From Escherichia phage vB_EcoM_G37-3, in the sequence record MK327941.1: 64,000 nucleotides of DNA; one strand, 5' to 3'. Numbering within the stretch: position 1 is the stretch's first letter; every line of letters begins with the position of its first letter. The notes below the pieces were generated by a model. That model searched no databases. It had not been told where the DNA came from and saw only the letters and a program-made list of their open reading frames with translations. This document shows, in pieces, positions 31,044 to 55,869 of this stretch. A program made the translations under genes and the position numbers.

Positions 31044-31054
31044 TTGAACAAACA

Positions 31055-33635: not shown

Positions 33636-33643
33636 CAGTTATT

Positions 33644-38093: not shown

Positions 38094-38108
38094 AATATAA
38101 ATCTCCCA

Positions 38109-38471
38109 TCAAATCAGTTTGAAATAGTTTTCGTTTACATTTTCTTCTGTGATTGCTGTCTTAAATTCTTGACCGTTATCCGGTGTGATGAAATAACGGT
38201 CAGAATAATCACGAAAACGTTTTAAGTGAGATACCCCAACATTAACACCATTTTCCCAAAAACGAAAGGTAATCATTTTTGGTTCATATCGATAGTCGCT
38301 GGTTAACACAGTACCATCACCGCGACGGGCTTCATAAACCGTAATACATTCACGATTAGCGGCTTTAAGGCATTCTTCAATAGTGCCGCATGAGATAATA
38401 CTTACTTTTTCATCTACGATTTGTTCTACAGTCCACATAATATAATCCTCTCTTTGTTTCGATATGTGCAT
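38109..38471 (-). CDS. hypothetical protein (120 aa)
   Basis: ORF with promoter cassette at 38461..38488. Confidence 0.6.
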   Translation of the reverse strand: MHISKQREDYIMWTVEQIVDEKVSIISCGTIEECLKAANRECITVYEARRGDGTVLTSDYRYEPKMITFRFWENGVNVGVSHLKRFRDYSDRYFITPDNGQEFKTAITEENVNENYFKLI

Positions 38472-38488
38472 TATACACTATTGCGTTA
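38461..38488 (-). promoter_or_regulatory. early promoter cassette
   Basis: TTGACA, 16-nt spacer, TATAAT. Confidence 0.5.
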
Positions 38489-39709
38489 CGCTGTCAACTC
38501 TTTTTCAAAAGATTTTACGATATACATGATGGTGCTCAATTCGGACGGCGCTACTGTCTCTGTGTAGCCATCCGGCATATCTTCTTTCGAGATATAGGAA
38601 GTTTTACCTTTCATTGCTTCCTTGATTTTGTTCTCTAATTCTAAGATCTTTTGACCGTCTTGTAAAGTCAATTCATAAAAGATCTCATGATCGAACTTTG
38701 AAACACGAGATTGGTTTCTCATGCGCTCATGTGTTTCTTTGTTTGTTATTCCAAATTTCACGCCAACAAAGGAATCATTGTTGGTTAATTTCTGTATATA
38801 AAGAGTTCCTGTCTTTAATGCCTGATAACCATGCTTAGAACACAACGGGCAGCGTGTTCCGCGATTAACAAAATTATCAATAGTTACATCCCATTCATGG
38901 TTACGTTCGCATGTCAGAAGTATTCTTGTTAATGCACCTTTCCACTTTCCTGAAATCCCAATAAATTTTAGTCTGTTGGTTTCGCATATTTTTTTAATTT
39001 GTTTTAATCGGTCACTTTTTGTTATTGGTGCTGTTCCGCTACATTTGCGACACCGACGACCTAGTTTGAACTTATCATAACTTTGTTCGTAAATGTGATT
39101 ATTAGGACACTCAAATTTAAGTTTAGTTTTTGTTCCTCTCCATTCCCCAATTATACCCAAAAATTTATAATCTCCTTTATTTTCATTTATATAAGATAAG
39201 GAATCTTCTTTATCATGCATCTTGCCCCCGTTACATAAAGGACATCTTGTTTTTTGATGAATGAAATCTGTATATGTTGGTTGGTATGTGTGTCCGTTTG
39301 TACAGTTCATAATGAGTCTTGTTCTGCTATTTTTATACTCCCCACCAACAAAACCAACAAATACATCGTTTGTTTCTTGTTTTATTCTTTCTATCACATT
39401 GTTTGGGTTTAATCTTTGAGAATCAACCACACATTTCTTACACGAAACTTTTTTCCTGATATTTGCTAGAGTTGATGTGTATTCATGCTTGTTATTACAT
39501 AATATAAGAGCTTTTGTTTTGAGACCAGACCATTCTCCAACAAACCCCATGAAAGAATAACCAACTTCCAAACATGAATTTTTTACAACATTTTCCCAAT
39601 AGAAGGGAGTTTTCGTGTTTCCTTTTATTTCTATACGAATCTCGTGTGCTTGACGTACCAACATATTTTTATCCTCCGTTGTTTCGATGATTGTATTATA
39701 CATTACCAC
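38486..39709 (-). CDS. protein with four tandem Cys-containing repeats and C-terminal GIY-YIG / T5orf172-like domain (407 aa)
   Basis: four roughly 45-aa repeats (FxGxxGEWxGxKTK...CxNxHxY, CPLC / CRKC) then LYIQKL...VKFGITNK...DGYTETV. Confidence 0.55.
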   Translation of the reverse strand: MVMYNTIIETTEDKNMLVRQAHEIRIEIKGNTKTPFYWENVVKNSCLEVGYSFMGFVGEWSGLKTKALILCNNKHEYTSTLANIRKKVSCKKCVVDSQRLNPNNVIERIKQETNDVFVGFVGGEYKNSRTRLIMNCTNGHTYQPTYTDFIHQKTRCPLCNGGKMHDKEDSLSYINENKGDYKFLGIIGEWRGTKTKLKFECPNNHIYEQSYDKFKLGRRCRKCSGTAPITKSDRLKQIKKICETNRLKFIGISGKWKGALTRILLTCERNHEWDVTIDNFVNRGTRCPLCSKHGYQALKTGTLYIQKLTNNDSFVGVKFGITNKETHERMRNQSRVSKFDHEIFYELTLQDGQKILELENKIKEAMKGKTSYISKEDMPDGYTETVAPSELSTIMYIVKSFEKELTA

Positions 39710-39723
39710 ATCAGCATGTCAAT
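39695..39723 (-). promoter_or_regulatory. early promoter cassette
   Basis: TTGACA, 17-nt spacer, TATAAT. Confidence 0.5.
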
Positions 39724-39752
39724 ACATTTTCATAAAATTTTAGGCAATAAAA

Positions 39753-39775
39753 AAGCCTTCCCGAAGGAAGGCTTT
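39753..39775. terminator. bidirectional rho-independent terminator after gene 32
   Basis: AAGCCTTCC-CGAA-GGAAGGCTT flanked by A run and T run. Confidence 0.6.
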
Positions 39776-39783
39776 AAAATTCA

Positions 39784-40758
39784 TTACATCCCTAACAGAG
39801 CGTCAAGATCATCCAGATCAGAAGCGGAGGAAGTACCGCCACCCAGGTCCAGAGATGCCATCAGATCATCAGCGGAAGAATCTAACGCCGTGCTAGCTGC
39901 GTTAATACCAACTACAGTGCTAACCGCGTTAATACCAGCATCGAATGCATTCATCTGTGCGTCAAAATCGTCAAGCTGGCTGTTAATCGCTGCCGCAGCA
40001 CTGGAAGCCGCAGCACCAGCTACCATAGACACACCCATAGTTTTCTTAAATTTGGTTTCCAGTTCATCGAACGGTTTAAACTGGCTAGGCGCTACAATCT
40101 CACTCAGGTCAACCATGTTTTCCATCAGATATTTCTGATATGCTTCGTCTTCAATTTTCGGAAGCTGTGATTGCTGCATGAAACGAGAATCATCATAGTT
40201 CTGGTGTTTATCAACCTTCTTAGCTTTCAGGAGGAAGTTAGCACCGGAGAACACACAAGTTACATCTACCGGAACTTCGCCCATATCGGTATTCACGTTC
40301 ACCATTGCAACGATCTTATCATAAATTTTCTGACCGAAGCGGAATTTGAATACCTTACCTTCATTTTCTGGTGCTTGAGGATCTTTCAGTACCAGAATAT
40401 TTGCGTAGTAAGAGGCTTTACGCTTAATCAGTTGCCATTCGGTTTTATCGGTATTGTACAGGTCTTTTTCGTTAATATATTTGCACACAGGGCAAGAATC
40501 AAAATCACCGTGGGTGCTTGAGCAGTTTTCCCAATACCATTTACCATTAACTTTGAAGGAATGGTTTACCAGTTTCACAATCGGCAGACCGTCTTCTGTC
40601 TTAGACGGCAGGAAGCGAATCAGGGCTTCACCGTTACCTGCTGCATCAGTCTTAATCTTCCACTCTTTCGGATCTTCTTTGGAGAAACCGTTGCCACCTT
40701 TCAGTGCGGCCAGTTGAGCTTGCAGTTTGGAAGAATCTTGGCGTTTAAACATATTCAC
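39784..40758 (-). CDS. 32: single-stranded DNA-binding protein gp32
   Basis: 324 aa; [19 protein letters not shown] zinc site, acidic C-terminus. Confidence 0.9.
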
Positions 40759-40788
40759 TATTCCTTCTTTTGATTAATTTACTAGACT

Positions 40789-40816
40789 ATTATACAGATT
40801 TAAATTTACTTGTCAA
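40789..40816 (-). promoter_or_regulatory. sigma70-type promoter upstream of gene 32
   Basis: TTGACA, 16-nt spacer, TATAAT about 35 nt upstream of ATG. Confidence 0.5.
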
Positions 40817-41493
40817 CTATTTGTTTCGGCTTTTAATTGAGATATTTCTTTACACTCTTTAACTACTTTAACAAATAATGCTCTTGCTTTTGCGGCGTCA
40901 ATAACAAGTAGTTTCTTGTACGCCTTCATTTTAACACTATAAGTTTGCCAAATCAAGTCTTTGGCTACCTTGTCGTGTTCGTCGATTATATTTAGAAAGC
41001 TATCTAACAACATAAACGACTCAAACGATATAATCCGATTTTGCAGTAGTTTAAAGATACCGCTAGTTTCGGTTGCGGGATTGTATGTAATTAGCTCTTT
41101 AAGAGTAACCCCGCGTTTCTCTGAGAAGTATACCAGACTTTTAATGTCATCGTCAAATCGTGTTGCTGCATCGGTTATCTTTCCTATGTATTCCATATAA
41201 AAGCCGTATGCGTCAACATCAGTGATTTCACCTACCCATGCATCGGTATTAGCTACCAGATTGCTTAGGAATAGGAAGTATAATTCTCTTAGATTGTACT
41301 TTTCCGCTAATTTTGCGAAATAATACTTATCTCTGCGTTTATTGAATGCGGCATCAGACAACCGCATCCTCCAATTGTATTTTACGCAATCATAACGCCC
41401 GTTCATGTGAGCTTTCATCATGCAATATAACATATACACAGATTTAGCATTAATTCGCATATCTGGATCTGGAGGAAGACGGTTTCTGATCAT
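40813..41493 (-). CDS. 59: helicase loader gp59
   Basis: 226 aa; aligns with T4 gp59 (YKLYLMIK..HMNGKYD, ISFESF.LLDSFLNIID). Confidence 0.85.
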   Translation of the reverse strand: MIRNRLPPDPDMRINAKSVYMLYCMMKAHMNGRYDCVKYNWRMRLSDAAFNKRRDKYYFAKLAEKYNLRELYFLFLSNLVANTDAWVGEITDVDAYGFYMEYIGKITDAATRFDDDIKSLVYFSEKRGVTLKELITYNPATETSGIFKLLQNRIISFESFMLLDSFLNIIDEHDKVAKDLIWQTYSVKMKAYKKLLVIDAAKARALFVKVVKECKEISQLKAETNS

Positions 41494-41502
41494 ACATACC
41501 CC

Positions 41503-41772
41503 TTAAATATCGAGAGTGTTTGTCGGTTCGTCGATCACTCCCTTCCTGAGCGTTCTATTTACTATACATTCTTGTGTGATCTTGTCAATAATGGACACTG
41601 GAATATATTTCTGATAGTGACCATATTCGATAGAGTTTTCCTCTACAAACTGCGTTGTCGCTTCAAGATAAGTCAATCCATCTTCAACAACCAGTTTTTC
41701 GATTGCAAGACCGTTTGCTGTTTTATTCGCGGCTTTTACCGCATGTTCATTAAGCATTGAACACCCGATCAT
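41503..41772 (-). CDS. 33: late transcription co-activator gp33
   Basis: 89 aa; YLEATTQFVEENSI matches T4 gp33. Confidence 0.7.
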   Translation of the reverse strand: MIGCSMLNEHAVKAANKTANGLAIEKLVVEDGLTYLEATTQFVEENSIEYGHYQKYIPVSIIDKITQECIVNRTLRKGVIDEPTNTLDI

Positions 41773-42025
41773 AGAGTTCTACCGCTTCGTCGCGTTCTGC
41801 TTCGAAGGTTTCGCGCTGTTGCTGGTGATACAGTTTAAACAGAATGCCCCACATTTTACCATCTACGCCTAATTCTTCTTTAGCACGCTGTTTGATCTCT
41901 TTGATCTTATCGCCATATGCTTCTTGAATGGTTTTCTGATCGCTGGCTTCTTTAATCAGTTGTGCCAGGGTATTTCCGTGTACATTTTCATCGAATACTA
42001 CTTTTTCTTTTTTCTGTTCAGTCAT
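41750..42025 (-). CDS. dsbA: dsDNA-binding protein DsbA-like
   Basis: 91 aa; size and position between 33 and rnh. Confidence 0.55.
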   Translation of the reverse strand: MTEQKKEKVVFDENVHGNTLAQLIKEASDQKTIQEAYGDKIKEIKQRAKEELGVDGKMWGILFKLYHQQQRETFEAERDEAVELYDRVFNA

Positions 42026-42030
42026 AATAT

Positions 42031-42627
42031 TTAACCCTCTTTCGTCATTAATTGAAAACCACGTTCAGCTTTTGAGATTTCGCTAGGACTTAAATCGTCA
42101 CCCACATATTCTAGCATCATTTCTCGGATAATGTCAAGTGCTTTTTCATCACCTGATTTTAACTCGAACTCAAGTTCATAGTGAGCGTCTCCCATTACTT
42201 CGCCGACTTTGCAATAATAGAAAGTGTCTTTGCACATTTCCACTATAGCACCCTCAAGGTCAAGTGTCAATGACTTGCGGTATGTCATGACTTGCAGTAA
42301 AGGAACGATAAGGTCGGAGTTTACGCCTAGACTATCAACATAGTGATAGAAATCATCCATTGTTGAAAAAGTAATTTCTTCTCGGTTGAAGAGTCCAGAT
42401 TCACTATCACCTATTTTGACCATGATCAATGATCTATTAACGTCAAGTCGAGCATAAATTCCTTTTCGACGCAGTGCATGATCTTCGGTATCATAATAAA
42501 ATTCGTGTTTTAGAGTGTTAGCACGATCTACTAGATTGCACCCGTCATACATTGCCACCCACAAATCACAGATGGTTTCGACGCCAATTTGTGAGTGTGC
42601 ATAGTATTTTAATTCAAGTTCTTTCAT
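42031..42627 (-). CDS. CYTH-like (triphosphate tunnel metalloenzyme) domain protein (198 aa)
   Basis: N-terminal ELELK (ExExK) and C-terminal ELEFELK acidic motifs. Confidence 0.45.
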   Translation of the reverse strand: MKELELKYYAHSQIGVETICDLWVAMYDGCNLVDRANTLKHEFYYDTEDHALRRKGIYARLDVNRSLIMVKIGDSESGLFNREEITFSTMDDFYHYVDSLGVNSDLIVPLLQVMTYRKSLTLDLEGAIVEMCKDTFYYCKVGEVMGDAHYELEFELKSGDEKALDIIREMMLEYVGDDLSPSEISKAERGFQLMTKEG

Positions 42628-42637
42628 CTGTCAACCC

Positions 42638-43585
42638 TTAGAACTCACCAATTTTCTGCAACATTTTAACTAACGCATTTGTTACAAAATAGTTATAAAT
42701 TTTACCGCGTGGTGCTGGTTTAGATTTCTCCCATGCTAACAAAATTTCATATTCGATGTTATCGGGAATAAATTCAAAATCAATAAGTTCGCGGTTTTCG
42801 TCAAAGCGTCGTGCTTCTTCCTCTGTCATCAAAGACTTTGGATCTTCGGCATCGAAAATTTGCTCTAACCATTTGGTTGCAATTGGTTTAGCTCGTTCTC
42901 CTTCAAGTCGTGAGATAATGAAATCACTACGGCACTTGATCGAAGCTACACCGTCTTTTGCGTCACCCTTAACACATTTTACCATAAGGTCTTTGTAAGG
43001 GCTACCATATTTGCATTTCTTCCATGCTTTCTGTACTGGCGCCCACTGTTTCACGTTTTTGTATTTGTGCAACTGTGTGTAGTCACCATCGCCGGAGTTG
43101 ATTAGCACCTGACGACCTTCTACAGAAAACTTTTTAGTTAATACAGCGATTATATCATCCGCTTCAACTTTGTCAACCTTAATAACGTGATAAGGCATGT
43201 TCTCTTTAAACTCTTCGGTGATCTTATTGATCGCAGCAAAGATCATCTCCCAATCACGCGGATCTGCGTCTCGTTTTTCCTTACGGTTGCGTTTATAGTA
43301 AGGGGCGATATCACGTCGCCAGTAACCTTTACTTGAATCAAAGGCAAGTACCGTAATAGGGTATTGCTCTTTGAATTTTGTCATATTATAACGCATGGTG
43401 TCAAGGATAAGATGACGGATCATGCCTTCATTAATAGGATCTTCCGGTTTAAAGGTATGCGAGATAGTAGCAATCATAAGCTGCGACATATCAATCAAAT
43501 GCACACCTTCCGGCAGTTTATCTTCTGGATCATCGAAGAAATCATTAAGTGTAGCGGTAGTTTTTGTAAACGGGTTATACGTCAT
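42638..43585 (-). CDS. rnh: RNase H / 5-prime-3-prime exonuclease
   Basis: 315 aa; aligns with T4 RNase H (GYWRRD, SGDGDYTQLHKY, PRGKIY). Confidence 0.85.
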   Translation of the reverse strand: MTYNPFTKTTATLNDFFDDPEDKLPEGVHLIDMSQLMIATISHTFKPEDPINEGMIRHLILDTMRYNMTKFKEQYPITVLAFDSSKGYWRRDIAPYYKRNRKEKRDADPRDWEMIFAAINKITEEFKENMPYHVIKVDKVEADDIIAVLTKKFSVEGRQVLINSGDGDYTQLHKYKNVKQWAPVQKAWKKCKYGSPYKDLMVKCVKGDAKDGVASIKCRSDFIISRLEGERAKPIATKWLEQIFDAEDPKSLMTEEEARRFDENRELIDFEFIPDNIEYEILLAWEKSKPAPRGKIYNYFVTNALVKMLQKIGEF

Positions 43586-43587
43586 AA

Positions 43588-43773
43588 TTAAGTTCTCTCC
43601 ACTCTCACAACAACATATTCGCCAAACGAGTTAGATACTTCACGATCATACCCGTATTTCTCCATAACTCGCAGAATTGCATTGTTTAGTTCTGCGCGAA
43701 AATAATTATAATCCTTATCAGGTATTCTGTCAACTATCCATTTTGCACCGTCTGACAAATCAAATTTAACCAT
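43588..43773 (-). CDS. hypothetical protein (61 aa)
   Basis: ORF, coupled to rnh. Confidence 0.5.
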   Translation of the reverse strand: MVKFDLSDGAKWIVDRIPDKDYNYFRAELNNAILRVMEKYGYDREVSNSFGEYVVVRVERT

Positions 43774-43779
43774 AATATA

Positions 43780-44361
43780 TCATCCTCTTTTTGGAAAATT
43801 TAAATAAGCATACTCGCCAACTATTTCATGTGCTGCACGGTCATAAGCCTTAGCCGCCTCAACTTCTGTCTCAAAGTATCCTAGATGTATATTCTTTCGA
43901 TTGATAACAATATACGCCTTCCACGGCTTTTTCTTGCTTGGTGATAATGATACACCTTTATATTTGCTATGGCAAGCCTTTTTCTTTGAGACGTTAAACT
44001 GATTTTGCTGTTCGGTTGCTTCTCTCATGTTTGACGGTCTATTGTTAGTTTTGTCTTGGTCTATGTGATCTATTCGTTCAACCTGAGTACCATACTCTAA
44101 AAACCAGACAACTCTATGTACAAACAGATTAAGTTTATGACCATTGTTGTAAAATGTAAAGTATAAATATCCTTCTTTATGGAGACATACCCTTACCACA
44201 TCACCTTTTTTGTATATGGACCCTTCTTTTCGGAATCCAGCAGCTACAGAATCCTTTAAATGGTATAATATTCCATCGACATGATAGAATCTACCTTTTA
44301 TCGCTTTCTGTGTCTCGATATCCCAAAATTTTGTTTTTGCCACAACAAACACCTCACACAA
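43780..44361 (-). CDS. HNH + AP2-domain homing endonuclease (193 aa)
   Basis: IDHIDQDKTNN (HNH) and YKGVS...HLGYFETEVEAAKAYD (AP2-like); paralog of 32691..33230. Confidence 0.7.
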   Translation of the reverse strand: MCEVFVVAKTKFWDIETQKAIKGRFYHVDGILYHLKDSVAAGFRKEGSIYKKGDVVRVCLHKEGYLYFTFYNNGHKLNLFVHRVVWFLEYGTQVERIDHIDQDKTNNRPSNMREATEQQNQFNVSKKKACHSKYKGVSLSPSKKKPWKAYIVINRKNIHLGYFETEVEAAKAYDRAAHEIVGEYAYLNFPKRG

Positions 44362-44395: not shown

Positions 44396-47300
44396 ATGGC
44401 AGATTTTTCTCAACATTTCAAGGCCACCTTTGGCTTTGACGCTGGTAATGAAAAGGTCGTCAATGTAGCATACGCAGATAAAAACACATCAACGGATGCG
44501 GTCAACGTTGAATTTTTCAATTACCATAATGGTATTACTCAGTATGACACAACTCGCGGTTATGATCAATACGGAACTACAATCTATCAAAACCGTCCGT
44601 ATTATGCAAAAGAAGATATCACAAAGCCAGCGGGTGATTTTGACCCGACGAAATGGCAAGCACTGCGCAACGATCCACGTTGGGATTATATTGCAGCAAC
44701 TTCCGGTGATACTCCTTTAAAGTCTGGTGATTATATCGCAGCAGATGGTCAATTTGCAAACTTGACTTTCTCTATGCCAAACAAACCAGCAGAGGGAGAC
44801 ACTATAACAGTAAAAGATATCGGTGGCAAGTGTGGTGTTAACGAATTATCGTTCTTGAGTTCAGGGCATGAGTTTTACCATAACGGTAATGTGTATAACC
44901 GAAAATGGTATTGCACTACCCCGTATGCAATGAACTATTTCATCTTTGTTCGTAATCGTTGGCATGTTTATCAGACAGGAACAGAGCCACGCGGTGTGTA
45001 CGCACAGCCAGCGATTGATGCTATTCAAATGCAGAATGGTGATCAGGTATTTCGTCGTAGTTCGTTGGGTAATATTACCTTAGTGCTTCCTAAGTTTGCC
45101 AACAATGGCGACATGATCCAGACTACAGATCTTGACGGGTTAACCGCAACCAACCACGTTACGGTTAAAGTTCATGAGCACGCAGAAGAACAATCAATTG
45201 GCACGTCCGGTCTAAAAGAGATTATCGGTAAGCGTAGCGGTCATGGTGTATTCATATTTGACAAACCGGAAAACTTATGGCGTTTGTGGGATGGTGATCA
45301 GTCTGTTCGCTTGAATCCTATCATTAGTGATACTCGCTTATCCCCTAATAGCTATGTTGCAGTATTTGGTGATCGTGATGTTGCCTTGACTTTACCGACC
45401 AATGTCGAGCCGGGTGATCGCATTCAAGTTTCTATGCAGTATATGCACGGAAACCAGACTTGCCGAATCATTACCTCAGAAGAGGATACAAAAATCCTTA
45501 TGCAGAAAAACATGGTTCAGTTTCCTAAGCGTAGCGAGTACCCATTCAATGGGACCGATACATGGACGGGAGTATCTGAATTGTCTTTCAACGCTGCAAA
45601 TGATTATGTACCTTATCTGGAGTTCTCTTATTCAGAAGGTGATGATGGTAAGAAATACTGGTTGGTGGCACATGCTCACCCGATTGTAGAACGAGTAGAT
45701 CCGACTCGTAAAGATCGTGTTGGTGTAATTGCACTGGCTACCCAGGATGAAACAAACAAAAACCATGAAGATAATCCTAGCGACGAAGTTGCGGTGACTC
45801 CAAAGGTTCTGGCTAACAAAACAGCCAACGAAACTCGACGCGGTATTGCTCGCATTGCGACTCAAGCGGAAACGCATCAAGATACTGGTTCCAGCTTCCT
45901 GGATGATGTTATCGTTACGCCTAAAAAGTTAAATGATTGTGTTGCTACCGAAGCCCGTCGTGGTGTAATGGAAATTGCAACTCAACATGAAACCAACGAA
46001 GGTTTAGACGATACTCGCGCAATAACTCCTAAGAAGTTAGAAGAACGTCGCGCTTCCGAAGATCTCGCTGGTATTGCTGAAATTGTTCAGGTTGGCGGTA
46101 GTGCTGCCACTCGACGTGGCGAAGCTGGTACAGGGATCTATAACATCAACGACCATGCTAAAATTGTTACGCCACAAAACATCAACGAAGTCAAGGCGAC
46201 CGAAACTTCCCGTGGTGTTGGCTATCTGGCAACTGACGCGGAAGTGCAAGGGGCTACAGAATCAACCCCGCAAGATGCTTTACTAATCACGACTCGCACG
46301 CTAACGAAGCGTACTGCTACAGAATCGCGTACTGGTATCGCTGAAATTGCAACTCAGGAAGAAACAAACTTAGGTCAAAGTGATAACCATATCATCACGC
46401 CTAAAAAGCTGCATACTCGCCGCGCAACGGAAACTTTACACGGTTTAGCAGAAATTGCAACTCAGTCGGAATTTGACGCAGGTCGTGACGATGCTCGCAT
46501 TTCTACCCCATTGAAGATTAAAACCTTCTTTGAGAATGCACAGCGTTTGAAAGTAGATCCGACTCAGGGGCTTAACCTTACGGGTGACTTGTGGCAAGGT
46601 ATCACGATCAGCGGTCTTGATGCAACCGAAGACACAAAAGGTGTCGCTAAAGTTGCTACTACTCAGCTTACGGATGTTGGTCAAGATGATACTACAATCA
46701 TCACGCCTAAAAAGCTGCAAGGCAAAAAAGCCACCGAAGGTAAAGAAGGTATTATCCGCGTTGGTACTCAAGCCGAAACCGTGGCTGGTACACTGGCTAA
46801 TGTAGCAATTTCTCCGAAGAACTTCAAATATGTTGTTCAGACAGAGGATACATGGAAAGCAACCGAAGCTCGTCGTGGATTCTTGAAAGTTGCTACTCAG
46901 GAAAACTGTTTTGTTGGTGATAATCTGCAAGGTTCTACTCAAGAACTAGGAAACTACCAGCATGACGGAATTGCTGTTACCCCTAAAGGATTAAACTACG
47001 CACTTGCTAATTTCTTACCTAAGATGGCAACTGCCCAGAATAGTTTGAAATTGGGTAACGTAGATGCCGCTAAATGGGCGCGTAGAGACATTGACCAGAC
47101 CATTGAGAGCAATTACACGTTTAATAAAAACGTTAACGTGAAGGGCGATTTAGAGTGCTTAAAATCAGGTTCCTTTGAAACTCTGTTTGTGACTAAGAAC
47201 TCGACTGATGATCCGAGTAATGGTCATCTGGTGTTGGGTGAGCGTGGAGTTGACGGTCACACCGGAATTACTCTGCATGGCACAACCGCATCGGAAGGCA

Positions 47301-48136
47301 TGGAAAACTCATGGTCTATTATCGTTGGTGGCACTGGAACATCTCAAGTTGTTGATAGTAATGCTATCGCTTTCGGTAAAATCAATGATGGTGGAGTCGT
47401 CGAGCATTACGCCTTTGCTATGGAACACAATGGCGACGCGACAGCATATAGAGACTTTATTGCAGGTCGTAACCTGTATGCGAAACAAGGCGGTTTATAC
47501 ATTGTTGACCAGTCTAATCCGGCAATGACTCGTTCCCCAGATGGTATGCTGAATATCGGTCACGGTGGAAGTGTTAACATCAAGGCAGGTCATCAAACGT
47601 TAACTACAGAGATCGCCGGACAGAAATATCAGATCGTCCACGCAGGAAACGCAGACGAAGTTCTTAACCGTCAGTTTGTTAAGAATGCTGGCGATACAAT
47701 GGTCGGTAAGCTGACTATGGATAATGCGCCTATTGTTTCTGTTAAGCATGAAGCTAGCGCGGCAACCGCTCCGGCAATCAGCAACATCGGTTTCTGGAAT
47801 ATGCGCGTTACTACCCAGAACATCAAAGAAACTTATCCAGAGAAGAAAAACGGTACTCTGATGCAATGGGGTACTGACGCGGACGGGCTTACCCAGCTTT
47901 GGTCCCCCGATGGTACTCATAAACATTATATCCGTTCCGGTACTGGTGGTCAATGGACCGCATGGGGTGAAATTTACACCAAACAGAATAAGCCTACCGC
48001 TCAGGAAATCGGGGCAGTAGTTGCAGAAGGTGGTTTAATGAACTCTATGACGGTTCGTGACTGGATCAAAGTTGGTAATGTTAAAATCATCGCCAATAAT
48101 CTGACTCGTACCGTAGACTTTATCTGGGAAGACTAA
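44396..48136 (+). CDS. 34: long tail fibre proximal subunit gp34
   Basis: 1246 aa; repeated (T/S)PKKL, ATQ.E motifs; synteny. Confidence 0.9.
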   Translation: MADFSQHFKATFGFDAGNEKVVNVAYADKNTSTDAVNVEFFNYHNGITQYDTTRGYDQYGTTIYQNRPYYAKEDITKPAGDFDPTKWQALRNDPRWDYIAATSGDTPLKSGDYIAADGQFANLTFSMPNKPAEGDTITVKDIGGKCGVNELSFLSSGHEFYHNGNVYNRKWYCTTPYAMNYFIFVRNRWHVYQTGTEPRGVYAQPAIDAIQMQNGDQVFRRSSLGNITLVLPKFANNGDMIQTTDLDGLTATNHVTVKVHEHAEEQSIGTSGLKEIIGKRSGHGVFIFDKPENLWRLWDGDQSVRLNPIISDTRLSPNSYVAVFGDRDVALTLPTNVEPGDRIQVSMQYMHGNQTCRIITSEEDTKILMQKNMVQFPKRSEYPFNGTDTWTGVSELSFNAANDYVPYLEFSYSEGDDGKKYWLVAHAHPIVERVDPTRKDRVGVIALATQDETNKNHEDNPSDEVAVTPKVLANKTANETRRGIARIATQAETHQDTGSSFLDDVIVTPKKLNDCVATEARRGVMEIATQHETNEGLDDTRAITPKKLEERRASEDLAGIAEIVQVGGSAATRRGEAGTGIYNINDHAKIVTPQNINEVKATETSRGVGYLATDAEVQGATESTPQDALLITTRTLTKRTATESRTGIAEIATQEETNLGQSDNHIITPKKLHTRRATETLHGLAEIATQSEFDAGRDDARISTPLKIKTFFENAQRLKVDPTQGLNLTGDLWQGITISGLDATEDTKGVAKVATTQLTDVGQDDTTIITPKKLQGKKATEGKEGIIRVGTQAETVAGTLANVAISPKNFKYVVQTEDTWKATEARRGFLKVATQENCFVGDNLQGSTQELGNYQHDGIAVTPKGLNYALANFLPKMATAQNSLKLGNVDAAKWARRDIDQTIESNYTFNKNVNVKGDLECLKSGSFETLFVTKNSTDDPSNGHLVLGERGVDGHTGITLHGTTASEGMENSWSIIVGGTGTSQVVDSNAIAFGKINDGGVVEHYAFAMEHNGDATAYRDFIAGRNLYAKQGGLYIVDQSNPAMTRSPDGMLNIGHGGSVNIKAGHQTLTTEIAGQKYQIVHAGNADEVLNRQFVKNAGDTMVGKLTMDNAPIVSVKHEASAATAPAISNIGFWNMRVTTQNIKETYPEKKNGTLMQWGTDADGLTQLWSPDGTHKHYIRSGTGGQWTAWGEIYTKQNKPTAQEIGAVVAEGGLMNSMTVRDWIKVGNVKIIANNLTRTVDFIWED

Positions 48137-48142
48137 TTAAAG

Positions 48143-48158
48143 GGGGCGAAAGCCCCCC
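48143..48158 (+). terminator. hairpin after gene 34
   Basis: GGGGGCGAAAGCCCCC; weak T tract. Confidence 0.35.
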
Positions 48159-48170
48159 TATGGGGTTATT

Positions 48171-49310
48171 ATGACACAAGAGATAGAATTACGCAACACT
48201 GGAATTAGGTTTGCGCATTTCGACGAAGACTCTGCGACATTTACCAGCATTTCAGAAAATAACTCTGTGATGTATAAGCTGGAAGTGCGCGGATCTAATG
48301 CGGATTCTACCAAACCAGCAAGAATTAGATTTAATGGAGTGGAGATCGTCGGGACTGGCTATGAGACTGGCCTAAACTTTAAAGTTTTTACTCCAACTGG
48401 ACAATTGCACGAAGAAAAGGTATTCTATGGTCGTGGTGCTGTATTGGCAATGCGTGATTATCTTTATTTGCTAAAAGGCGACTATATCATTGCGATGGCA
48501 ACGCATGGAGAATTGTTTGCAGATCCGATAAGTGATGATATATTTTCTAAGCTGGGATCTGTATCATTCCCGAATCACATTTTGTTACAGCAAATGCCTC
48601 GTGTATCCTATGCAGCAATTTATTCTACTAAAATGGGTAAAATTGTGTGCGAAGGGATGCAAGCAACGCACGGAGAAGGTCAAGATTCGTCTATACAAAT
48701 TGAGAAAGTTTATGATACTATAGACGATCTTGCAATAACAGGAACACCACAACGATTTTTAGATTATCCGGTTGAGTATGTTAGCGAAGATGCCGAACAT
48801 TTCGAGATAATACAATGGCCTCATGATGAGATCAGCGCACCACTTGAACATTTTAACATAAAGGCAGGTGACAAACTATCAATATCCTTTGAATTGTTCC
48901 GTGATAGTGCCGCAGCCGCAGCCAACGTAACAGCGCGTTTCTATCACAACTACTTCACTGATGGACAATATCAAACTGGCGTTCGTTATAATGCCAGCCA
49001 GAAAGATCAATGGGAAAAGTTTGAAACCGTCTATACCGTACCGGAAGGAGTTGATAGTGTTGCCACTGGTTGTATCAGATATCCAACCAACTCAAATGAA
49101 GGTATTGTTAAAATTAGAAACATACTAATAACGCCGATCAGTGGAGTCGTCAAAACTACTGGTCCTACTTCCTTTGGTGTTAACGGTATTAGAACAACTC
49201 ACATTCAGGATAACGGTAATTTCGATAACCCTGTTATGAGTCTTCTTAAACTACCTAGAGACAATAAACATATCACATCCAACAACTTTAAAGAGTTCGA
49301 TGTTGATTAA
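48171..49310 (+). CDS. 35: long tail fibre hinge protein gp35
   Basis: 379 aa; synteny and size. Confidence 0.8.
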   Translation: MTQEIELRNTGIRFAHFDEDSATFTSISENNSVMYKLEVRGSNADSTKPARIRFNGVEIVGTGYETGLNFKVFTPTGQLHEEKVFYGRGAVLAMRDYLYLLKGDYIIAMATHGELFADPISDDIFSKLGSVSFPNHILLQQMPRVSYAAIYSTKMGKIVCEGMQATHGEGQDSSIQIEKVYDTIDDLAITGTPQRFLDYPVEYVSEDAEHFEIIQWPHDEISAPLEHFNIKAGDKLSISFELFRDSAAAAANVTARFYHNYFTDGQYQTGVRYNASQKDQWEKFETVYTVPEGVDSVATGCIRYPTNSNEGIVKIRNILITPISGVVKTTGPTSFGVNGIRTTHIQDNGNFDNPVMSLLKLPRDNKHITSNNFKEFDVD

Positions 49311-49512: not shown

Positions 49513-51003
49513 ATGGCAGATTTGAAACATGGATCTACTGTAGGCGGATCTCCCATTTGGACGCAAGGAAACTTGACGATCCAGCCAGCGGGGGATCAGC
49601 TTTTCTACAAAGGTCATAAAATCTATACCGCTTTTGATAAACCTTCGGCTGCCGATTTTGATGCTGTTAGTGCATCCGAAGGTGGCACATTTCAAAAGCA
49701 AGTTCATTTCGAGGAAGGTTTAAGCGTAGGTAGCGCATCGGCTGGAGAAACCAAAAAGAACGGGATCTTTAAAGGAAATAGTGATGCGGCTAACTTTGAT
49801 GGTGTAAGTTGGGGTTTGCATTCGTGGAAATCTATTGGTTTTGTTAATGCTCGTGATGATGTTATCATGGCTTATATTGACACTACCACAGGTGATTTTA
49901 AAACTAAAGGGACTATCGAAGGGACAACCATTAAAGACACAGGTCAACGCGTCTATAGCCCTGTTAATAAACCAACGAATAATGATTTAGATTTGGTGTC
50001 TCGTCGCGGTGATACCCTCACAGGAACATATAATTTAAACACTGTCACTGTTAAACTATCGGTTGATTCGAAATTAATTGCAAGGGAACGTGATTTAATT
50101 AATTTTGATGCGACTAAGATCTATTATGGTAACGTTCTTGATACGTTGGTCTTCCGAAGTAAAGATGAGCCTACCATTTTTGTTAATGGCAGAGAAGGTC
50201 GTTTTTATCACACCAACAATAAACCAACTAAAGCCGATGTTGGGCTAGGCAATGTCACCAATGATGCACAGGTTAAACGTGCTGGTGATATTATGGAAGG
50301 TAACTTGCAAGCACCTAGAATGTTGGCGACAAACGATCCTGCTGGTCCTAATGAATTGGTTCGTTTGAGCTACTTTGAGAGAAAATCAATGGTAGCAAAT
50401 CCAACCATCATTGGAAACGTTGATTGGAACACTCTTATTAATCGCGGTATCTATCGTGTGGAAAATGCTGGGTCAGGTACTAATAAACCGTCTGATAGCT
50501 ATTATAACGGCGTTTTGATGGTATATCGCCCAGAAGATGCGGTCGGTACTCGTCGAATTGTTCAGGTGTATTATCCTGAATCTATTGACCATCCGATGTG
50601 CTGGCGTTCTTGTTCTAATGAATCATGGACTGCATGGAACTATGTAGATCACCGTAAATTGGCTGATATTCGCTATGTTAACGTCACTGGCGATACCATG
50701 ACAGGACCGTTAACTGTTCCGGCTGCAAACGGTGTTAGAACGGCTAGAGGTGCATATAATGGTGATAACTACTATGCCGGGTTAAATAGTGCTGACGGCA
50801 CGGCTATGATTCACCGTATCAGCGATATTAAAGCCACTGAAAAATTGGGTATTACACATGATTCGAAAGCTGTTTTCGTTAAATCGCGTGGAAATACTCA
50901 AGCCACAGACCGCTATGAACTTTACCACGAAGGGCATAAACCTACCCCTGCCGAAGTTGGTGCGGTTCCACTTAATGCGGTGATTGATTTCGGTACTTTC
51001 TAA
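49513..51003 (+). CDS. 36: long tail fibre distal connector gp36 (enlarged, 496 aa)
   Basis: synteny between 35 and 37; repeated YxxxNKPT motifs. Confidence 0.7.
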   Translation: MADLKHGSTVGGSPIWTQGNLTIQPAGDQLFYKGHKIYTAFDKPSAADFDAVSASEGGTFQKQVHFEEGLSVGSASAGETKKNGIFKGNSDAANFDGVSWGLHSWKSIGFVNARDDVIMAYIDTTTGDFKTKGTIEGTTIKDTGQRVYSPVNKPTNNDLDLVSRRGDTLTGTYNLNTVTVKLSVDSKLIARERDLINFDATKIYYGNVLDTLVFRSKDEPTIFVNGREGRFYHTNNKPTKADVGLGNVTNDAQVKRAGDIMEGNLQAPRMLATNDPAGPNELVRLSYFERKSMVANPTIIGNVDWNTLINRGIYRVENAGSGTNKPSDSYYNGVLMVYRPEDAVGTRRIVQVYYPESIDHPMCWRSCSNESWTAWNYVDHRKLADIRYVNVTGDTMTGPLTVPAANGVRTARGAYNGDNYYAGLNSADGTAMIHRISDIKATEKLGITHDSKAVFVKSRGNTQATDRYELYHEGHKPTPAEVGAVPLNAVIDFGTF

Positions 51004-51073: not shown

Positions 51074-53938
51074 ATGGCAGATTTAAACAGAATCCAATTT
51101 AAACGCACTAGCACTAAAGGTCGTAAACCTGATGCTAGTACGATGTATCCGGGGGAATTGGCAATCAACCTTGCGGATCAATACATGTTTACTAAAAATG
51201 ATTCGGGGACTCTCATCAATTTAAGTTGTCCTCCGGTGTATAACCGTGACGTTATAATGGCGGGTAAGGTTAAAGGGAATGATTATATTTTAAGCAAAAC
51301 CGCTAATTATTTTGAAGACCAAACCGCGCGAGATCTTAATTATTTTGGTGCGTTTCGACCGAATAATGCTGATGGTTGGTCTAACTTGATTCTGAACATT
51401 CCTCATCCCAGCGGTAAAGCACACGGTCGCGGTTTTGAGTTCCAATATGGGTCCAGCTCACCTCAAGTTAAAACCTATGGCTTTGATAAAGATGGTAATA
51501 AGCGATTCAGCTTTCGCATGTATCACGAAGGTGATAAGCCTAGTCCGTCAGAATTAAATGTGTACAGCAAACAAGAAGTAGATCGGATGTTCCAAAAGAC
51601 ACTTGATTTTGGAACTGAGTCTGGTTGGTTTAAAATTGCTACTGTATATCTTCCGCAACACTTCGGTCGTAGTGCTAAAATTAGATTGGTTGGTGGTAAT
51701 GGCTATAATGTAGGAAAGACAGATCGATGTAATATTATTGAATTAGTGTTGCGGAATGGCAACAATGCCCCTAAAGGAATTAATATTGTTGCTTATCATC
51801 ACATTTCTGGGGGTGAAAACCAATTTTGTGCTATTAATACAAGCGACGATAATTATGATATATATGCTTATTATTTCGGACATACATCATTTGTTCTTGC
51901 TGAATATCAAGCGTCTACCGGTGTTAATTTAACTGTACTTGATCGACCTGAATATGTCGGCGAAAAACCTGTAGCTGATCATATCTATGATGCATATACA
52001 ATATACTCCTTTAACAGTTTCAGTAACCGTGGAACGTTAAATTTTGCTGGAAACCCTCAAGGCCAATATGACATTGAGCATATGAACGAACAACCGACAA
52101 ATGCTAAAAAGATGTTGCGTCGGTTTAGAAGCTCTGCTCTTTCCACTATCTGGCATGAAACCGTTGATGACCAGAATTATCGTCTTGCCACTGGCTTTAC
52201 AGATTCAGGTCAACAATTATTGCTGACAACAACCGGGTTACATGTCAAGAGATTAACATTGGATGGCGGTGCTGCGGGTGGAAATGCTGGTATTGATATT
52301 CGTCGAGGACCAAACGAAGCAAGCCATTTTAATTTTATGGATTATCGCACTGGTCAAGATGTTCGTAATGGCTGGTTTGGTTTTGGTGATTTGACGACCA
52401 AAGATTTTATTTGGTGGAACGATAACGGTCAAAACTCGATAAACTTGGTCGAAAACGGTGAATTACAGATTTCTGGCGGTAAAGGCCAGAAAATTGTAAT
52501 GAATAGCGAAGTTGCATTATCTGAAAATGCTCGTTTGGCTGTTAGAGGTGGTAATTATGGCGTGATATTCCGTAATGATGGAACGAGCTTTCATCTGCTT
52601 ACTACCGATTTAAAAGATTCTTTTGGTAGTTGGAATAATCGCAGACCGTTCAGTTATGATTTCGCCGAAGGTGGATTAGATCTAGGTGGCACAACGACCG
52701 CTCGTTGTTTACATCTGGGAATTGATGGTAGTACCCGCATCGAGGATAACTTAGTTTTCCGGGCTGGATCTCGTCAATCAATGGACTATATTGAAATGAT
52801 CCATTGGGGTAACAGTAATATCGCTCGTGACAACGTTTTGAGTATGAAAGACTCGAAAGGATTCCTTGCTGAATTTGAACGCGTGGGTGGGACTAACGGC
52901 GTTAAAACCAGATTATTTGGCGAAACCTTCACTGACGGTACATTATACCTAAATCAGATGAATAATAGCTCTGAACGATTCTCTATCAACAATTGGGGAA
53001 ATTCAGAAGTTGGACGCGCGGCAGTAATGGAGATCGGTGATTCCAAAGGTTATCACTTCTATACTGAACGTAGAACAGATAACACCGTTTTATTTGATGT
53101 AGCTGGTGCTTTGACCGTGCATGGACCTAACGGAATAACCATCAAAAACTCAACTGGTGCACGCCATATCTGGTTTAGAGATGACAGCGAATCGGAAAAG
53201 GCTGTTATCTGGGCTACAGATGAGGGTATTTTACATATTCGCAATAACCACGGTGGACAATTTAGTCATCACTTCCAGGGTGCAATGATTAAAGCGGGAG
53301 AGCGTGTTCCATATAATAGTGAATACGCTCTTATCCGTGGTGATATTTCCGGTGGTGCATGGGTAGACTGGCGAGCGCGTCCGGCTGGATTGTTGGTAGA
53401 CTGTCAGGACTCACGAAATCAAGCATATAACATTTGGAAAGCTACTCATTGGGGCGAACAGCACCTTGCGGCGATGGGTGTTCATGCTGGCGGTGGTAAT
53501 CCTCATGTTGTATTGCATGTGGGTGGGAATGATTATGCATTTGCATCTAACGGTGATTTTACTGCTGGTGCTGCTGTATATTGTAACGACGTTTATATTC
53601 GTTCTGACCGTCGTCTGAAAATTAATGTTGAAGACTACGAAGAGAATGCGGTAGATAAGGTAAATAAACTCAAAGTTAAAACCTATGATAAAGTTAAATC
53701 TCTTTCTGACCGCGAAGTTATCGGCCATGAGATTGGTATTATCGCACAGGATTTGCAAGAAGTATTACCGGAAGCTGTTAGCACTTCTAGTGTCGGATCT
53801 CAGGATAACCCAGAAGAAATTTTAACAATTTCAAACTCCGCAGTGAACGCGCTGTTAATTAAAGCGATCCAAGAAATGAGCGAAGAAAATAAAATCCTTC
53901 GTGAACGTCTTGCTGCAATTGAGGCTAAATTAGGGTAA
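51074..53938 (+). CDS. 37: long tail fibre distal subunit gp37 with C-terminal intramolecular chaperone (peptidase S74-like) domain
   Basis: 954 aa; C-terminal about 110 aa IRSDRRLKINVEDYE...IGIIAQDLQEVLPEAV...NALLIKAIQE typical of auto-cleaving fibre chaperone domains. Confidence 0.85.
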   Translation: MADLNRIQFKRTSTKGRKPDASTMYPGELAINLADQYMFTKNDSGTLINLSCPPVYNRDVIMAGKVKGNDYILSKTANYFEDQTARDLNYFGAFRPNNADGWSNLILNIPHPSGKAHGRGFEFQYGSSSPQVKTYGFDKDGNKRFSFRMYHEGDKPSPSELNVYSKQEVDRMFQKTLDFGTESGWFKIATVYLPQHFGRSAKIRLVGGNGYNVGKTDRCNIIELVLRNGNNAPKGINIVAYHHISGGENQFCAINTSDDNYDIYAYYFGHTSFVLAEYQASTGVNLTVLDRPEYVGEKPVADHIYDAYTIYSFNSFSNRGTLNFAGNPQGQYDIEHMNEQPTNAKKMLRRFRSSALSTIWHETVDDQNYRLATGFTDSGQQLLLTTTGLHVKRLTLDGGAAGGNAGIDIRRGPNEASHFNFMDYRTGQDVRNGWFGFGDLTTKDFIWWNDNGQNSINLVENGELQISGGKGQKIVMNSEVALSENARLAVRGGNYGVIFRNDGTSFHLLTTDLKDSFGSWNNRRPFSYDFAEGGLDLGGTTTARCLHLGIDGSTRIEDNLVFRAGSRQSMDYIEMIHWGNSNIARDNVLSMKDSKGFLAEFERVGGTNGVKTRLFGETFTDGTLYLNQMNNSSERFSINNWGNSEVGRAAVMEIGDSKGYHFYTERRTDNTVLFDVAGALTVHGPNGITIKNSTGARHIWFRDDSESEKAVIWATDEGILHIRNNHGGQFSHHFQGAMIKAGERVPYNSEYALIRGDISGGAWVDWRARPAGLLVDCQDSRNQAYNIWKATHWGEQHLAAMGVHAGGGNPHVVLHVGGNDYAFASNGDFTAGAAVYCNDVYIRSDRRLKINVEDYEENAVDKVNKLKVKTYDKVKSLSDREVIGHEIGIIAQDLQEVLPEAVSTSSVGSQDNPEEILTISNSAVNALLIKAIQEMSEENKILRERLAAIEAKLG

Positions 53939-53977
53939 TTGGAAAGCGGGGAGAAAATCCCCGCTAAGGATTCTTAT

Positions 53978-54274
53978 ATGGGATATTGGGTCAGTAGTGA
54001 AATTAATACTAAAATCGATGCTTTAAAATGGCATGTATTTGATATTCCTAACGGCTATGGTACTGCTCGCGCTGGCGTTGCTGTCATGCGTCATAATGCT
54101 GGTGGTGGATGGTCTGATGCACATATTAACGTAGATGGTTTGACCGTTGCTCGTCGTCGTGGTGGGTCCAATTGGGGATCTACTATAAATTCGTTTGTTC
54201 CTGCTGGCTGTACCGTCTCCTTTGGTTTAGGGGGTGAAGGTGGTGTTGAATATTTTAAATTCATGGAGTTTTAA
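53978..54274 (+). CDS. small Gly-rich protein, paralog 1 of 3 (98 aa)
   Basis: AAGGA-N7-ATG; MGYW...FDIPNGYG...GGGW; hairpin 53946..53964 just upstream. Confidence 0.6.
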   Translation: MGYWVSSEINTKIDALKWHVFDIPNGYGTARAGVAVMRHNAGGGWSDAHINVDGLTVARRRGGSNWGSTINSFVPAGCTVSFGLGGEGGVEYFKFMEF

Positions 54275-54276
54275 TT

Positions 54277-54582
54277 ATGGCTGGATGGATAAATCAAAGA
54301 ATGTCAAACGCTATTAGTATTTGGGCTAATGGTGGATATTTTGATATCCCTAACGGTTGGGTCACTGATTCATGCGGAATTGTTTTTGCTCATATGGAAG
54401 CCATTAACGGTGCTGGTGATCTTGGTTCTGAATTGGCTGTAAATGGATTGATTGAATCAGGTCATCACGCTGGTAATGCCGGAAGTTGGGGCGCTAGTTC
54501 TTTAGTTGGCGCTGGTGCTACCGTTAGCTTTACATTGGGTAAAGGTAGTTTGCATTATTTCAAATTCAGGAGAATGCACTAA
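54277..54582 (+). CDS. small Gly-rich protein, paralog 2 of 3 (101 aa)
   Basis: MAGW...FDIPNGW...; ends YFKFRRMH. Confidence 0.6.
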   Translation: MAGWINQRMSNAISIWANGGYFDIPNGWVTDSCGIVFAHMEAINGAGDLGSELAVNGLIESGHHAGNAGSWGASSLVGAGATVSFTLGKGSLHYFKFRRMH

Positions 54583-54884
54583 TGGCATTTTGGGTAGATG
54601 GCGCTTTGGGGAATAGGGCGGGTAAAGCAAATCAAGGATGGTTTGATATTCCTAACGGTTGGACAGCCGACGCTTTCGGGACTATTTCATTTTCCGCTCA
54701 TTCTTCCGGTGGTGGCGGCGGTGACTCTGAATTGTTTATTCATGGTTTTTGTGTTTCTGGAAGCCATAAGGGTCATGATTGGGGACAGATCCATTCTTGT
54801 ATTGCACCGCAAGGGGCGGTAATTACCGTTAGCACAAATAGGGGGGTCGCTCATCTTCGTTATAGACGTTTGAGCAACCGCTAA
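54582..54884 (+). CDS. small Gly-rich protein, paralog 3 of 3 (100 aa)
   Basis: AGGAG RBS; MAFW...FDIPNGW...GGGGGD. Confidence 0.6.
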   Translation: MAFWVDGALGNRAGKANQGWFDIPNGWTADAFGTISFSAHSSGGGGGDSELFIHGFCVSGSHKGHDWGQIHSCIAPQGAVITVSTNRGVAHLRYRRLSNR

Positions 54885-54939
54885 ATAAATAGAATTACGG
54901 AAAACTCCCAGGGAAGGGAACTACTAAGGAGAAACGGCT

Positions 54940-55179
54940 ATGGTCTATAATATCGTCATTGGTGCTTTGTCTAATTTCGGAATGAAACTATTGTCAAAGT
55001 TAATTAGTGAAAAGATGCTCACTAAAATTTTCTTCTATTGCGCTCGTCGTCTTGCGGCTTATACCAATACGCCAATTGATGATCGTTTTGTGGAAGAGCT
55101 TTATAAGGAGTTTAATAAAGATCAGTCAGAAGATAGCAACGAGCAAAATAAAAATAGTGATAGTCAAGTACCTAAATAA
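54940..55179 (+). CDS. hypothetical protein (79 aa)
   Basis: AAGGAG RBS; hydrophobic N-terminus, acidic C-terminus. Confidence 0.55.
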   Translation: MVYNIVIGALSNFGMKLLSKLISEKMLTKIFFYCARRLAAYTNTPIDDRFVEELYKEFNKDQSEDSNEQNKNSDSQVPK

Positions 55180-55212
55180 GAATACACTGTCATAGTTATC
55201 TTAGGGCATTAT

Positions 55213-55869
55213 ATGCAAGTTTCTGAAAAAGGGAAAGACTTTGCTATCTCAAATGTCCTGCGCGCTATTTTCACAACTAAAAGCACGGAGTTGCTCGTAC
55301 TTCGTGTTTTTGCTGCCGTCGTGTTGTCTATATTAGCATTTGTCGTTTATAGTAAAAACGAGTTATTTGCCTTGTATAAAGAGACTCGTTATGAGACTTA
55401 TGCTCACGTTCTCCAGGTAGAGAAAGACCGCAATTTTGATAATGCAGCACAGGAGCAGTTACAGATAGTTCATGTGTCGGCTAATGCCGATTTTTCTGCT
55501 GTTTTTAGTTTTCGTCCGAAAAACCTAAACTATTTTGTTGATTTGGTGGCATATGAAGGAAAGTTACCTCATACAATCGACGAAAAGAATTTAGGCGGAT
55601 TCCCTATCAATAAAACGAGTGAAGAATATCGTAGGCATCTTTTAGGTAAATCCTATTTTACCGATAAAGATTTCCAGTATATTCCATCAAGAGAAAAGAA
55701 ATTAGAGAGTATCGATATAGGGTTTATGTATTCTTGCCCTATATTCAATCTCGATAATGTCTATTCTGGTAGTATCGCCATTGCATGGAAGAATAAACCG
55801 GATATTGACATTGAGAATTTAGATACTCTTTGCAATCAATCTGCCAGAATCCTCGGAAGGATTAGATAA
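55213..55869 (+). CDS. t: holin t
   Basis: 218 aa; single N-terminal TM; LQIVHVSANADFSAVFSFRPKNLNYFVDLVAYEGKLP matches T4 holin. Confidence 0.85.
   Translation: MQVSEKGKDFAISNVLRAIFTTKSTELLVLRVFAAVVLSILAFVVYSKNELFALYKETRYETYAHVLQVEKDRNFDNAAQEQLQIVHVSANADFSAVFSFRPKNLNYFVDLVAYEGKLPHTIDEKNLGGFPINKTSEEYRRHLLGKSYFTDKDFQYIPSREKKLESIDIGFMYSCPIFNLDNVYSGSIAIAWKNKPDIDIENLDTLCNQSARILGRIR

Follow-up and report, generated by a model that had tools for sequence, protein, structure and literature searches.

The question raised by this locus is what the last residues of a phage tail fibre do, and whether they say anything about the fibre protein gp38. The locus is the gene for gp37, the distal subunit of the long tail fibre, in Escherichia phage vB_EcoM_G37-3 (MK327941.1), of which we analysed a stretch of 64,000 nucleotides (nt), called the window below. 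The source phage is a Krischvirus (RB49-like Straboviridae), and window positions 30000-44000 are 95-97% identical to GoldenSnicker, RB49 and relatives. The initial annotation of this DNA had proposed that the last ~110 residues of gp37 are an auto-cleaving chaperone domain, that this domain makes a gp38-type chaperone unnecessary, and that gp38 has been replaced by three small paralogs encoded downstream. We find that residues 844-954 are very probably a Peptidase_S74 intramolecular chaperone domain (IMC) that would work as in the solved homologues, and that such a domain is ordinary and already described for this class of gp37. The features on which the argument depends are listed here, with positions in the window.

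51074..53938, + strand: gp37, long tail fibre distal subunit precursor, 954 amino acids (aa), 106.1 kDa, from the open reading frame (ORF), PHROG 1699 and Pfam
53603..53935, + strand: IMC, residues 844-954, 111 aa, 12.3 kDa
53603-53779, + strand: Pfam S74 core, part of the IMC
~53834-53932, + strand: long C-terminal helix of the IMC in the AlphaFold2 model
53936-53938, + strand: gp37 stop codon
53600..53605, + strand: predicted autocleavage site R843^S844 (^ marks the cut), from the invariance of S844 and K849 and the alignment with phage S16
53603-53605, + strand: S844, predicted nucleophile
53618-53620, + strand: K849, predicted general base
51074..53602, + strand: mature form of gp37 as predicted (residues 1-843; 93.8 kDa), with DVYIR as its last beta-strand

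The S74 domain of gp37

The C-terminus of gp37 shows all the defining features of the S74 family that could be tested. In the translation of the ORF at 51074..53938 it reads ...YCNDVYIRSDRRLKINVEDYEENAVDKV...IGIIAQDLQEVLPEAV...NALLIKAIQEMSEENKILRERLAAIEAKLG, and when it is divided at the domain boundary it reads ...GAAVYCNDVYIR before the boundary and SDRRLKINVEDYEENAVDKVNKLKVKTYDKVKSLSDREVIGHEIGIIAQDLQEVLPEAV...NALLIKAIQEMSEENKILRERLAAIEAKLG after it. The Pfam family PF13884, Peptidase_S74 ('chaperone of endosialidase'), matches residues 844-902 with an E-value of 9.2e-15 and 55.1 bits, where the gathering cutoff is 22 bits, and the match spans profile positions 1-57 of 58. This is the hidden Markov model search that the initial annotation had called for, and it confirms a domain of 111 aa at the end of gp37, with the peptide that had been singled out in its expected place. 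The domain is at the extreme C-terminus (844-954 of 954) of a gp37-type distal fibre, which is matched as a whole by PHROG 1699 'long tail fiber protein distal subunit' (E 3.7e-164) and carries Pfam Gp34_trimer at residues 428-528.

The residues expected of the active site are in place as well. A serine opens the domain and a lysine follows five residues on, in the motif SDRRLK. When gp37 was used as a phmmer query against the PDB it found gp37 of S16 (6f45_A, E 5.9e-11), with SDRRLK aligned on the SDRRIK of S16, so that the earlier choice of the serine in SDRRLK as the point of cleavage agrees with the alignment of S844 on the S16 cleavage site. A profile built from 42 sequences and run against the PDB found 6f45 (4e-13), the ICA domain of MyRF 7dc3 (1e-8) and the fibre 8jov (3e-7). 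S844, D845 and K849 are unchanged throughout the alignment of the 42 homologues, and these three together with G888 and A891 of the GxIAQ motif are invariant in an alignment of six phages. The serine and the lysine are found five residues apart in 16 of 16 fibres from very different phages. The MyRF serine position also aligns with S844 and reads alanine (ADLRAK) in the crystallised chain 7dc3.

Structure prediction points the same way. The AlphaFold2 monomer model of residues 743-954 has a mean predicted local distance difference test score (pLDDT) of 80, rising to 86-96 in most of the IMC, which is modelled as beta-hairpins followed by a terminal helix of 33 residues (179-211 of the modelled segment). 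The beta-hairpin 'tentacle' region and the long C-terminal helix that define the family can both be seen in this model. The top Foldseek matches in the PDB are all solved IMCs, namely 7dc3, 3gw6 (endosialidase) and 3gud (GA-1 gp12), and for 7dc3 the match has an E-value of 7e-6, a probability of 1.0 and a TM-score of 0.67 normalised to the 7DC3 chain over 126 aligned columns. The IMC of gp37 is already known biology, being near-identical to domains annotated in RB32-type and phiC120 gp37.

Predicted cleavage and its consequences

The best guide to what the domain would do is the gp37 of S16, in which the last 113 residues are autocleaved after trimerisation at DLNVS^SDRRIKK, and the cleavage uncovers the docking surface for gp38 (PMC7917993). 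The corresponding site is DVYIR^SDRRLKI in the window and DVYIR^SDGRLKI in the fPS phages (PMC7917993), and DVYIR^SD, with its docking strand, is the same in RB32, RB49, KFS-EC, FL04 and the fPS phages. Nucleotide 53600 is the start of the R843 codon. By analogy with S16, we infer that gp37 undergoes autoproteolytic release after trimerisation. The C-terminal helices and 'tentacles' of the IMC would bring three nascent gp37 chains into register, and the registered IMC would then nucleate the folding of the trimeric beta-helical tip starting from its C-terminal end. Once the trimer has formed, Ser844, activated by Lys849, would cut each chain between R843 and S844 and so release the 12-kDa IMC, leaving a mature fibre of 843 residues whose end is a flat platform built from three DVYIR strands.

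What would dock on this platform probably differs between phages. In the phages of T2/T6/S16 type gp38 is not a chaperone; it is the adhesin of the tip and docks once the IMC has been released (PMC7917993; PMC6851490; bioRxiv 10.64898/2026.05.12.724579), and the gp37 of T2, T6 and S16, which carry an IMC, depend on it for receptor binding (bioRxiv 10.64898/2026.05.12.724579). The S16-type gp38 docks as a monomer, with three tryptophans on three short helices entering three symmetry-related pockets at the gp37 base (PMC6851490). In T2/S16-type phages the platform is where gp38 docks, and in the window the most likely partner would be the three co-translated small paralogs encoded immediately downstream of gp37.

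Three small genes follow gp37

These genes, which we call the trio, are as follows.

53978..54274, + strand: p1, 98 aa, ATG at 53978 with an AAGGA Shine-Dalgarno sequence
54277..54582, + strand: p2, 101 aa, predicted N-terminal helix and C1q/TNF-like beta-sandwich
54582..54884, + strand: p3, 100 aa, start overlapping the p2 stop (TAATG)

A mechanical list of ORFs begins p1 at a TTG at 53939, which gives 111 aa and reads through a hairpin. The real start is the ATG at 53978, because the orthologues in G2248, UPWr_E1 and Salmonella begin MGYW and the Shine-Dalgarno sequence is present. The three genes are tightly coupled, and their products are mutually 26-35% identical and have in common W4 and a block FDIPNGW; no Pfam or PHROG family matched them. 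One paralog is modelled as a compact jelly-roll beta-sandwich that resembles gC1q/TNF. That three paralogs are conserved, in the same order and translationally coupled suggests from the sequence that they may form a heterotrimer. The N-terminus is no more conserved in the trio than the remainder. We considered and rejected the idea that the N-terminal MxxW of each paralog mimics a Trp prong of gp38, which is speculation; in distant members the place of the Trp is taken by Y, L, M or N.

The trio family is rare: of 1.84 billion representative proteins searched with a profile, only 19 match at E <= 1e-3. Of 50,697 phage records, two (G2248 and UPWr_E1) have the trio and KFS-EC has a remnant of it. 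Its contexts are Krischviruses, siphovirus-like contigs (Salmonella L006, L007 and L014; E. coli L009-L013) and short metagenomic contigs. Each genomic context that was read has a fibre ending in S74 and, directly 3' of it, three small ORFs whose order and one-to-one orthology are conserved, with the exception of L014, where only the first two are called as genes and the p3 DNA of the window matches 7325-7568. All seven of the seven ORFs upstream of the trio that were tested have S74, and all share the motif hydrophobic-x-hydrophobic-R^SDx[RN]LK; in the metagenomic contig L023 the upstream fibre has a T7-tail-fibre N-domain. These counts come from ~16 loci, several of them closely related. Examples of the positions of the trio are given below.

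L003, 5032-5938: trio locus
L004, 5020-5920: trio locus
L006, 7645-8640: trio locus (Salmonella)
L009, 6702-7608: trio locus (E. coli)
L023, 1990-2959: trio locus (metagenomic)

The closest relative of the window's cassette is an E. coli element, which is colinear with window 51296-54900 at 85% nt identity and has a trio that is 97-99% identical. The siphovirus-like element represented by L009-L013, L006, L007 and L014 has an S78 protease-capsid fusion, a distal tail protein resembling pb9 and a tip of the GpJ type, and encodes a gp37-like side fibre of 1021-1176 aa between its head and tail genes. The element is apparently undescribed. Megablast of its backbone against the phage and plasmid collections gave no match, and only its fibre matches known phages. 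An identity of the E. coli element with SSU5-like phage-plasmids was considered and is unsupported, the plasmid collection giving no match. An orthologue of p2 was found in 57 blocks of the assembly collection.

The trio and gp38 in Krischviruses

In most Krischviruses gp38 is encoded away from gp37, ~55 kb distant near rI (bioRxiv 10.64898/2026.04.02.716166). With the Phi1 locus as reference, we found it at this place in RB49, Phi1, JSE, KFS-EC and GoldenSnicker, and FL04 is a Krischvirus in which gp38 adjoins gp37. At the syntenic locus of G2248 and UPWr_E1 the equivalents of ORF080 and ORF078 are separated by a 61-nt spacer, and gp38 is not there. Three divergent gp38 sequences found no match at E <= 1 by tblastn in the complete genome of G2248, where the positive controls worked. 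KFS-EC, which retains gp38 ~55 kb from gp37, has a degraded trio: a deletion corresponding to window 54245-54708 has taken out p2 entirely, along with the 3' end of p1 and the 5' end of p3, and a single p1/p3 fusion ORF of 107 aa is left (L001 8802-9125, equal to window 53978-54245 joined to 54708 onward). The trio and gp38 are thus apparently mutually exclusive in the Krischvirus genomes checked. G2248 also has a hypothetical gene of 714 aa beside rI.-1 (L017 8894-11038; record 46893-49037), near the place of gp38 in other Krischviruses.

What the trio may do

The most economical reading, we infer, is a heterotrimeric tip that fills the adhesin role of gp38. As a tentative proposal, for which the chances seem to us somewhat short of even, a heterotrimer of one p1, one p2 and one p3 would cap the IMC-processed end of gp37 in place of gp38, the N-terminal helices docking on the DVYIR platform and the jelly rolls forming a three-lobed receptor-binding head, and the genes would be a mobile adhesin cassette interchangeable with gp38. 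Equally tentative is the part of this proposal by which the cassette of an S74 fibre and three paralogs would span myovirus long fibres, siphovirus-like side fibres and T7-type podovirus fibres and be horizontally mobile.

A number of points count against this picture of chaperone, platform and cap. The part of the model that represents the mature tip is less confident, with pLDDT values of 35-84 over residues 743-842. The cleavage of gp37 is argued from S16, and the registration of the trimer is argued from a monomer model. The fibres of T4 require the general chaperone gp57A, whose locus is outside the window. The fold scores of the C1q/TNF-like model are moderate, and hhalign against RB32 gp38 gave a probability of 0.3% for homology of the trio with gp38.

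The main competing explanation gives the paralogs a role in assembly, or takes them for accessory genes unrelated to the tip that simply accompany the fibre gene, and we regard this as doubtful though a real contender. The undetectable homology with gp38 is in its favour, as is the variation of the N-terminal Trp in distant family members, and an intact trio together with a gp38 is possible in this phage given that the gp38 locus is outside the window. Accessory genes would however hardly be expected to show such strict linkage to S74 fibres in four unrelated phage backgrounds, as three orthologues in constant order. Nor do they account easily for the absence of gp38 from the complete genome of G2248 and from the syntenic UPWr_E1 locus, and its retention in KFS-EC where the trio is degraded. 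The C1q/TNF-like fold is typical of trimeric fibre heads, and a fibre that bears an IMC scarcely needs three more chaperones.

The IMC does not report on gp38

A different proposal is that the IMC itself lets the phage dispense with gp38, and so marks the replacement of gp38 by the paralogs. It can point to the trio being always 3' of an S74 fibre and to the lack of any gp38 homologue beside gp37 or within the window: tblastn with two divergent gp38 sequences found none in the 64 kb, which do not extend to the usual Krischvirus locus, and neither type of gp38 is adjacent to gp37. Since that locus, normally ~55 kb from gp37, is outside the window, absence within the window does not show that the phage lacks gp38. 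S74 is present in the gp37 of RB32, FL04, RB49, KFS-EC, G2248 and UPWr_E1. In RB32, where the gene order is 37-38-t, a T6-type gp38 (PF05268 and PF21721) adjoins gp37, and the IMC of the window is 98-99% identical at the nt level to that of this gp38-carrying phage. The presence of an IMC is by itself uninformative on the loss of gp38, because the two coexist in RB32, FL04, RB49 and KFS-EC, and they do so in S16 as well; moreover gp38 in this fibre class is an adhesin and not a chaperone. We consider it unlikely that the IMC stands in for gp38. The claim that it makes a gp38-type chaperone superfluous is not supported as it was argued, and a rule that IMC-bearing gp37 never occurs with gp38 is contradicted by these phages. 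The further claim that three paralogs replace gp38 survives in part: it is supported by the constant linkage of the trio to S74 fibres and by the mutual exclusion among the Krischviruses checked, while the role that would be replaced is that of an adhesin.

It is also conceivable, and in our view very improbable, that the S74 domain is a relic that no longer cleaves and stays on as part of a functional tip. The analogy by which cleavage is predicted here leaves room for this. The catalytic Ser and Lys and the entire core motif are nevertheless invariant in the 42 homologues and in the 16 diverse fibres, S16 as the closest characterised relative is cleaved, and the IMC moves as a conserved cassette while the tip that precedes it varies.

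That the S74 domain identifies gp37 as an endosialidase or as a depolymerase of capsules, as the term 'novel putative depolymerase' for the S74-bearing distal fibre of phiC120 would have it (PMC8022965), is scarcely credible, as PF13884 models the chaperone part only, no glycosidase, sialidase or pectin-lyase domain was found in gp37 with Pfam or PHROG, and outside the S74 domain the PHROG 1699 and Gp34_trimer matches show a fibre shaft of gp37 type. The phiC120 fibre is near-identical to gp37, and the depolymerase inference in that paper looks mistaken, the domain being a chaperone only.

Mosaic structure of gp37 and its neighbourhood

The gp37 gene is a mosaic, and the following segment is the part common to Tequatrovirus and Mosigvirus gp37.

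52902..53893, + strand: fibre tip and most of the IMC, common to RB32, RB33, phiC120 and others, phages with a gp38 adhesin gene beside gp37

By megablast this segment is 94-95% identical overall at the nt level to the gp37 genes of RB32, RB33 and phiC120, rising to 98-99% in 53350-53800, and the tip and IMC are 95-99% identical to RB32 at the nt level and 91% at the aa level. The last ~45 nt (~15 residues) switch to the type of KFS-EC and UPWr_E1. The shaft is KFS-EC/phiS-like at ~80-83% nt identity, and the last ~45 nt of gp37 together with the trio (53882..55200) are of the type seen in G2248, UPWr_E1 and the E. coli element. The terminal helix of the IMC contains one recombination junction.

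The rest of the fibre cluster is as follows.

44396..48136: gene 34
48171..49310: gene 35
49513..51003: gene 36
51074..53938: gp37, followed in order by the three small ORFs, a dc5-like ORF and the holin t (55213..55869)
53945..53965, + strand: GC-rich hairpin between the gp37 stop and p1, RNA fold -16 to -18 kcal/mol, z = -2.3

The gp36 of the window has 496 aa (PHROG 16472, with only a weak match to Pfam Phage_T4_gp36) and that of RB32 has 216 aa. Since the former is more than twice as long, the distal half-fibre differs from the Tequatrovirus layout. The arms and loop of the hairpin resemble GCGGGGAG/AAAAU/CUCCCCGC, and it sits just 5' of the p1 ribosome-binding site. The matching site in G2248 is annotated as a putative terminator, but the hairpin lacks a T-run. 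Attenuation is one role that it might have, and it might also be a PeSL-type hotspot of recombination. A scan for promoters and terminators around gp37 and the trio gave no signal above chance.

Comparison with known systems

The closest likeness is with the gp37 of S16 (6F45), T2, T6 and RB32, which have the same C-terminal S74 IMC of ~110 residues, the same site x^SDRR[IL]K and a mature end that serves as a docking platform. They differ in the next gene, which encodes a monomeric gp38 adhesin of ~260 aa, whereas here there are three paralogs of ~100 aa with no similarity to gp38. Both the gp38 adhesin of T2 and S16 and the trio are encoded directly 3' of an IMC-bearing gp37. The former is one chain, with an attachment domain of three helices and three Trp and a polyglycine sandwich, and the latter is three chains, each with a predicted short N-terminal helix and a C1q/TNF-like jelly roll, with no sequence homology between them.

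The IMCs of endoNF (3GW6) and GA-1 gp12 (3GUD) belong to the same Pfam family, with the same predicted fold (Foldseek probability 0.94-1.0) and, according to the family description, the same Ser-Lys autoproteolysis. Their identity to gp37 is however only ~11-17%, and their client is a tailspike stalk or neck appendage where here it is the beta-helix tip of a fibre. The MyRF ICA domain (7DC3) is the best structural match, with aligned Ser and Lys positions, though it comes from a eukaryotic transcription factor and has only the trimerise-and-cleave module in common.

T4 shares the place of gp37 in the fibre cluster (34-35-36-37-...-t), but its gp37 lacks an IMC and contacts the receptor through a tip of its own. 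The gp38 of T4 acts as a chaperone, leaves when assembly is complete and has no role in host recognition, an exception to the adhesin role of gp38 (PMC6851490). Neither trait is present in the window. The gp37 studied here does not belong to the T4 type: the IMC is present, and searches for Pfam matches to the T4 tip domain and for an adjacent gp38 found neither.

Implications

For annotation, the predicted mature gp37 should be given as residues 1-843, and the S74 match should be taken neither as a sign of a depolymerase nor as evidence on gp38. Fibres with an IMC that have no receptor-binding domain of their own need an external partner at the tip, and such partners are acknowledged to be under-detected; a 2026 preprint predicts 'undetected external adhesin partners' for them (bioRxiv 10.64898/2026.05.12.724579). 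We found no description of the trio in the literature on G2248, UPWr_E1, KFS-EC and C1q-like tip adhesins with IMC fibres. The trio is a concrete candidate for a new and previously undescribed class of partner, and it could explain how the receptor is recognised by Krischviruses that lack gp38. If this is true, it would be a compact and swappable module for host-range engineering and for the prediction of receptors.

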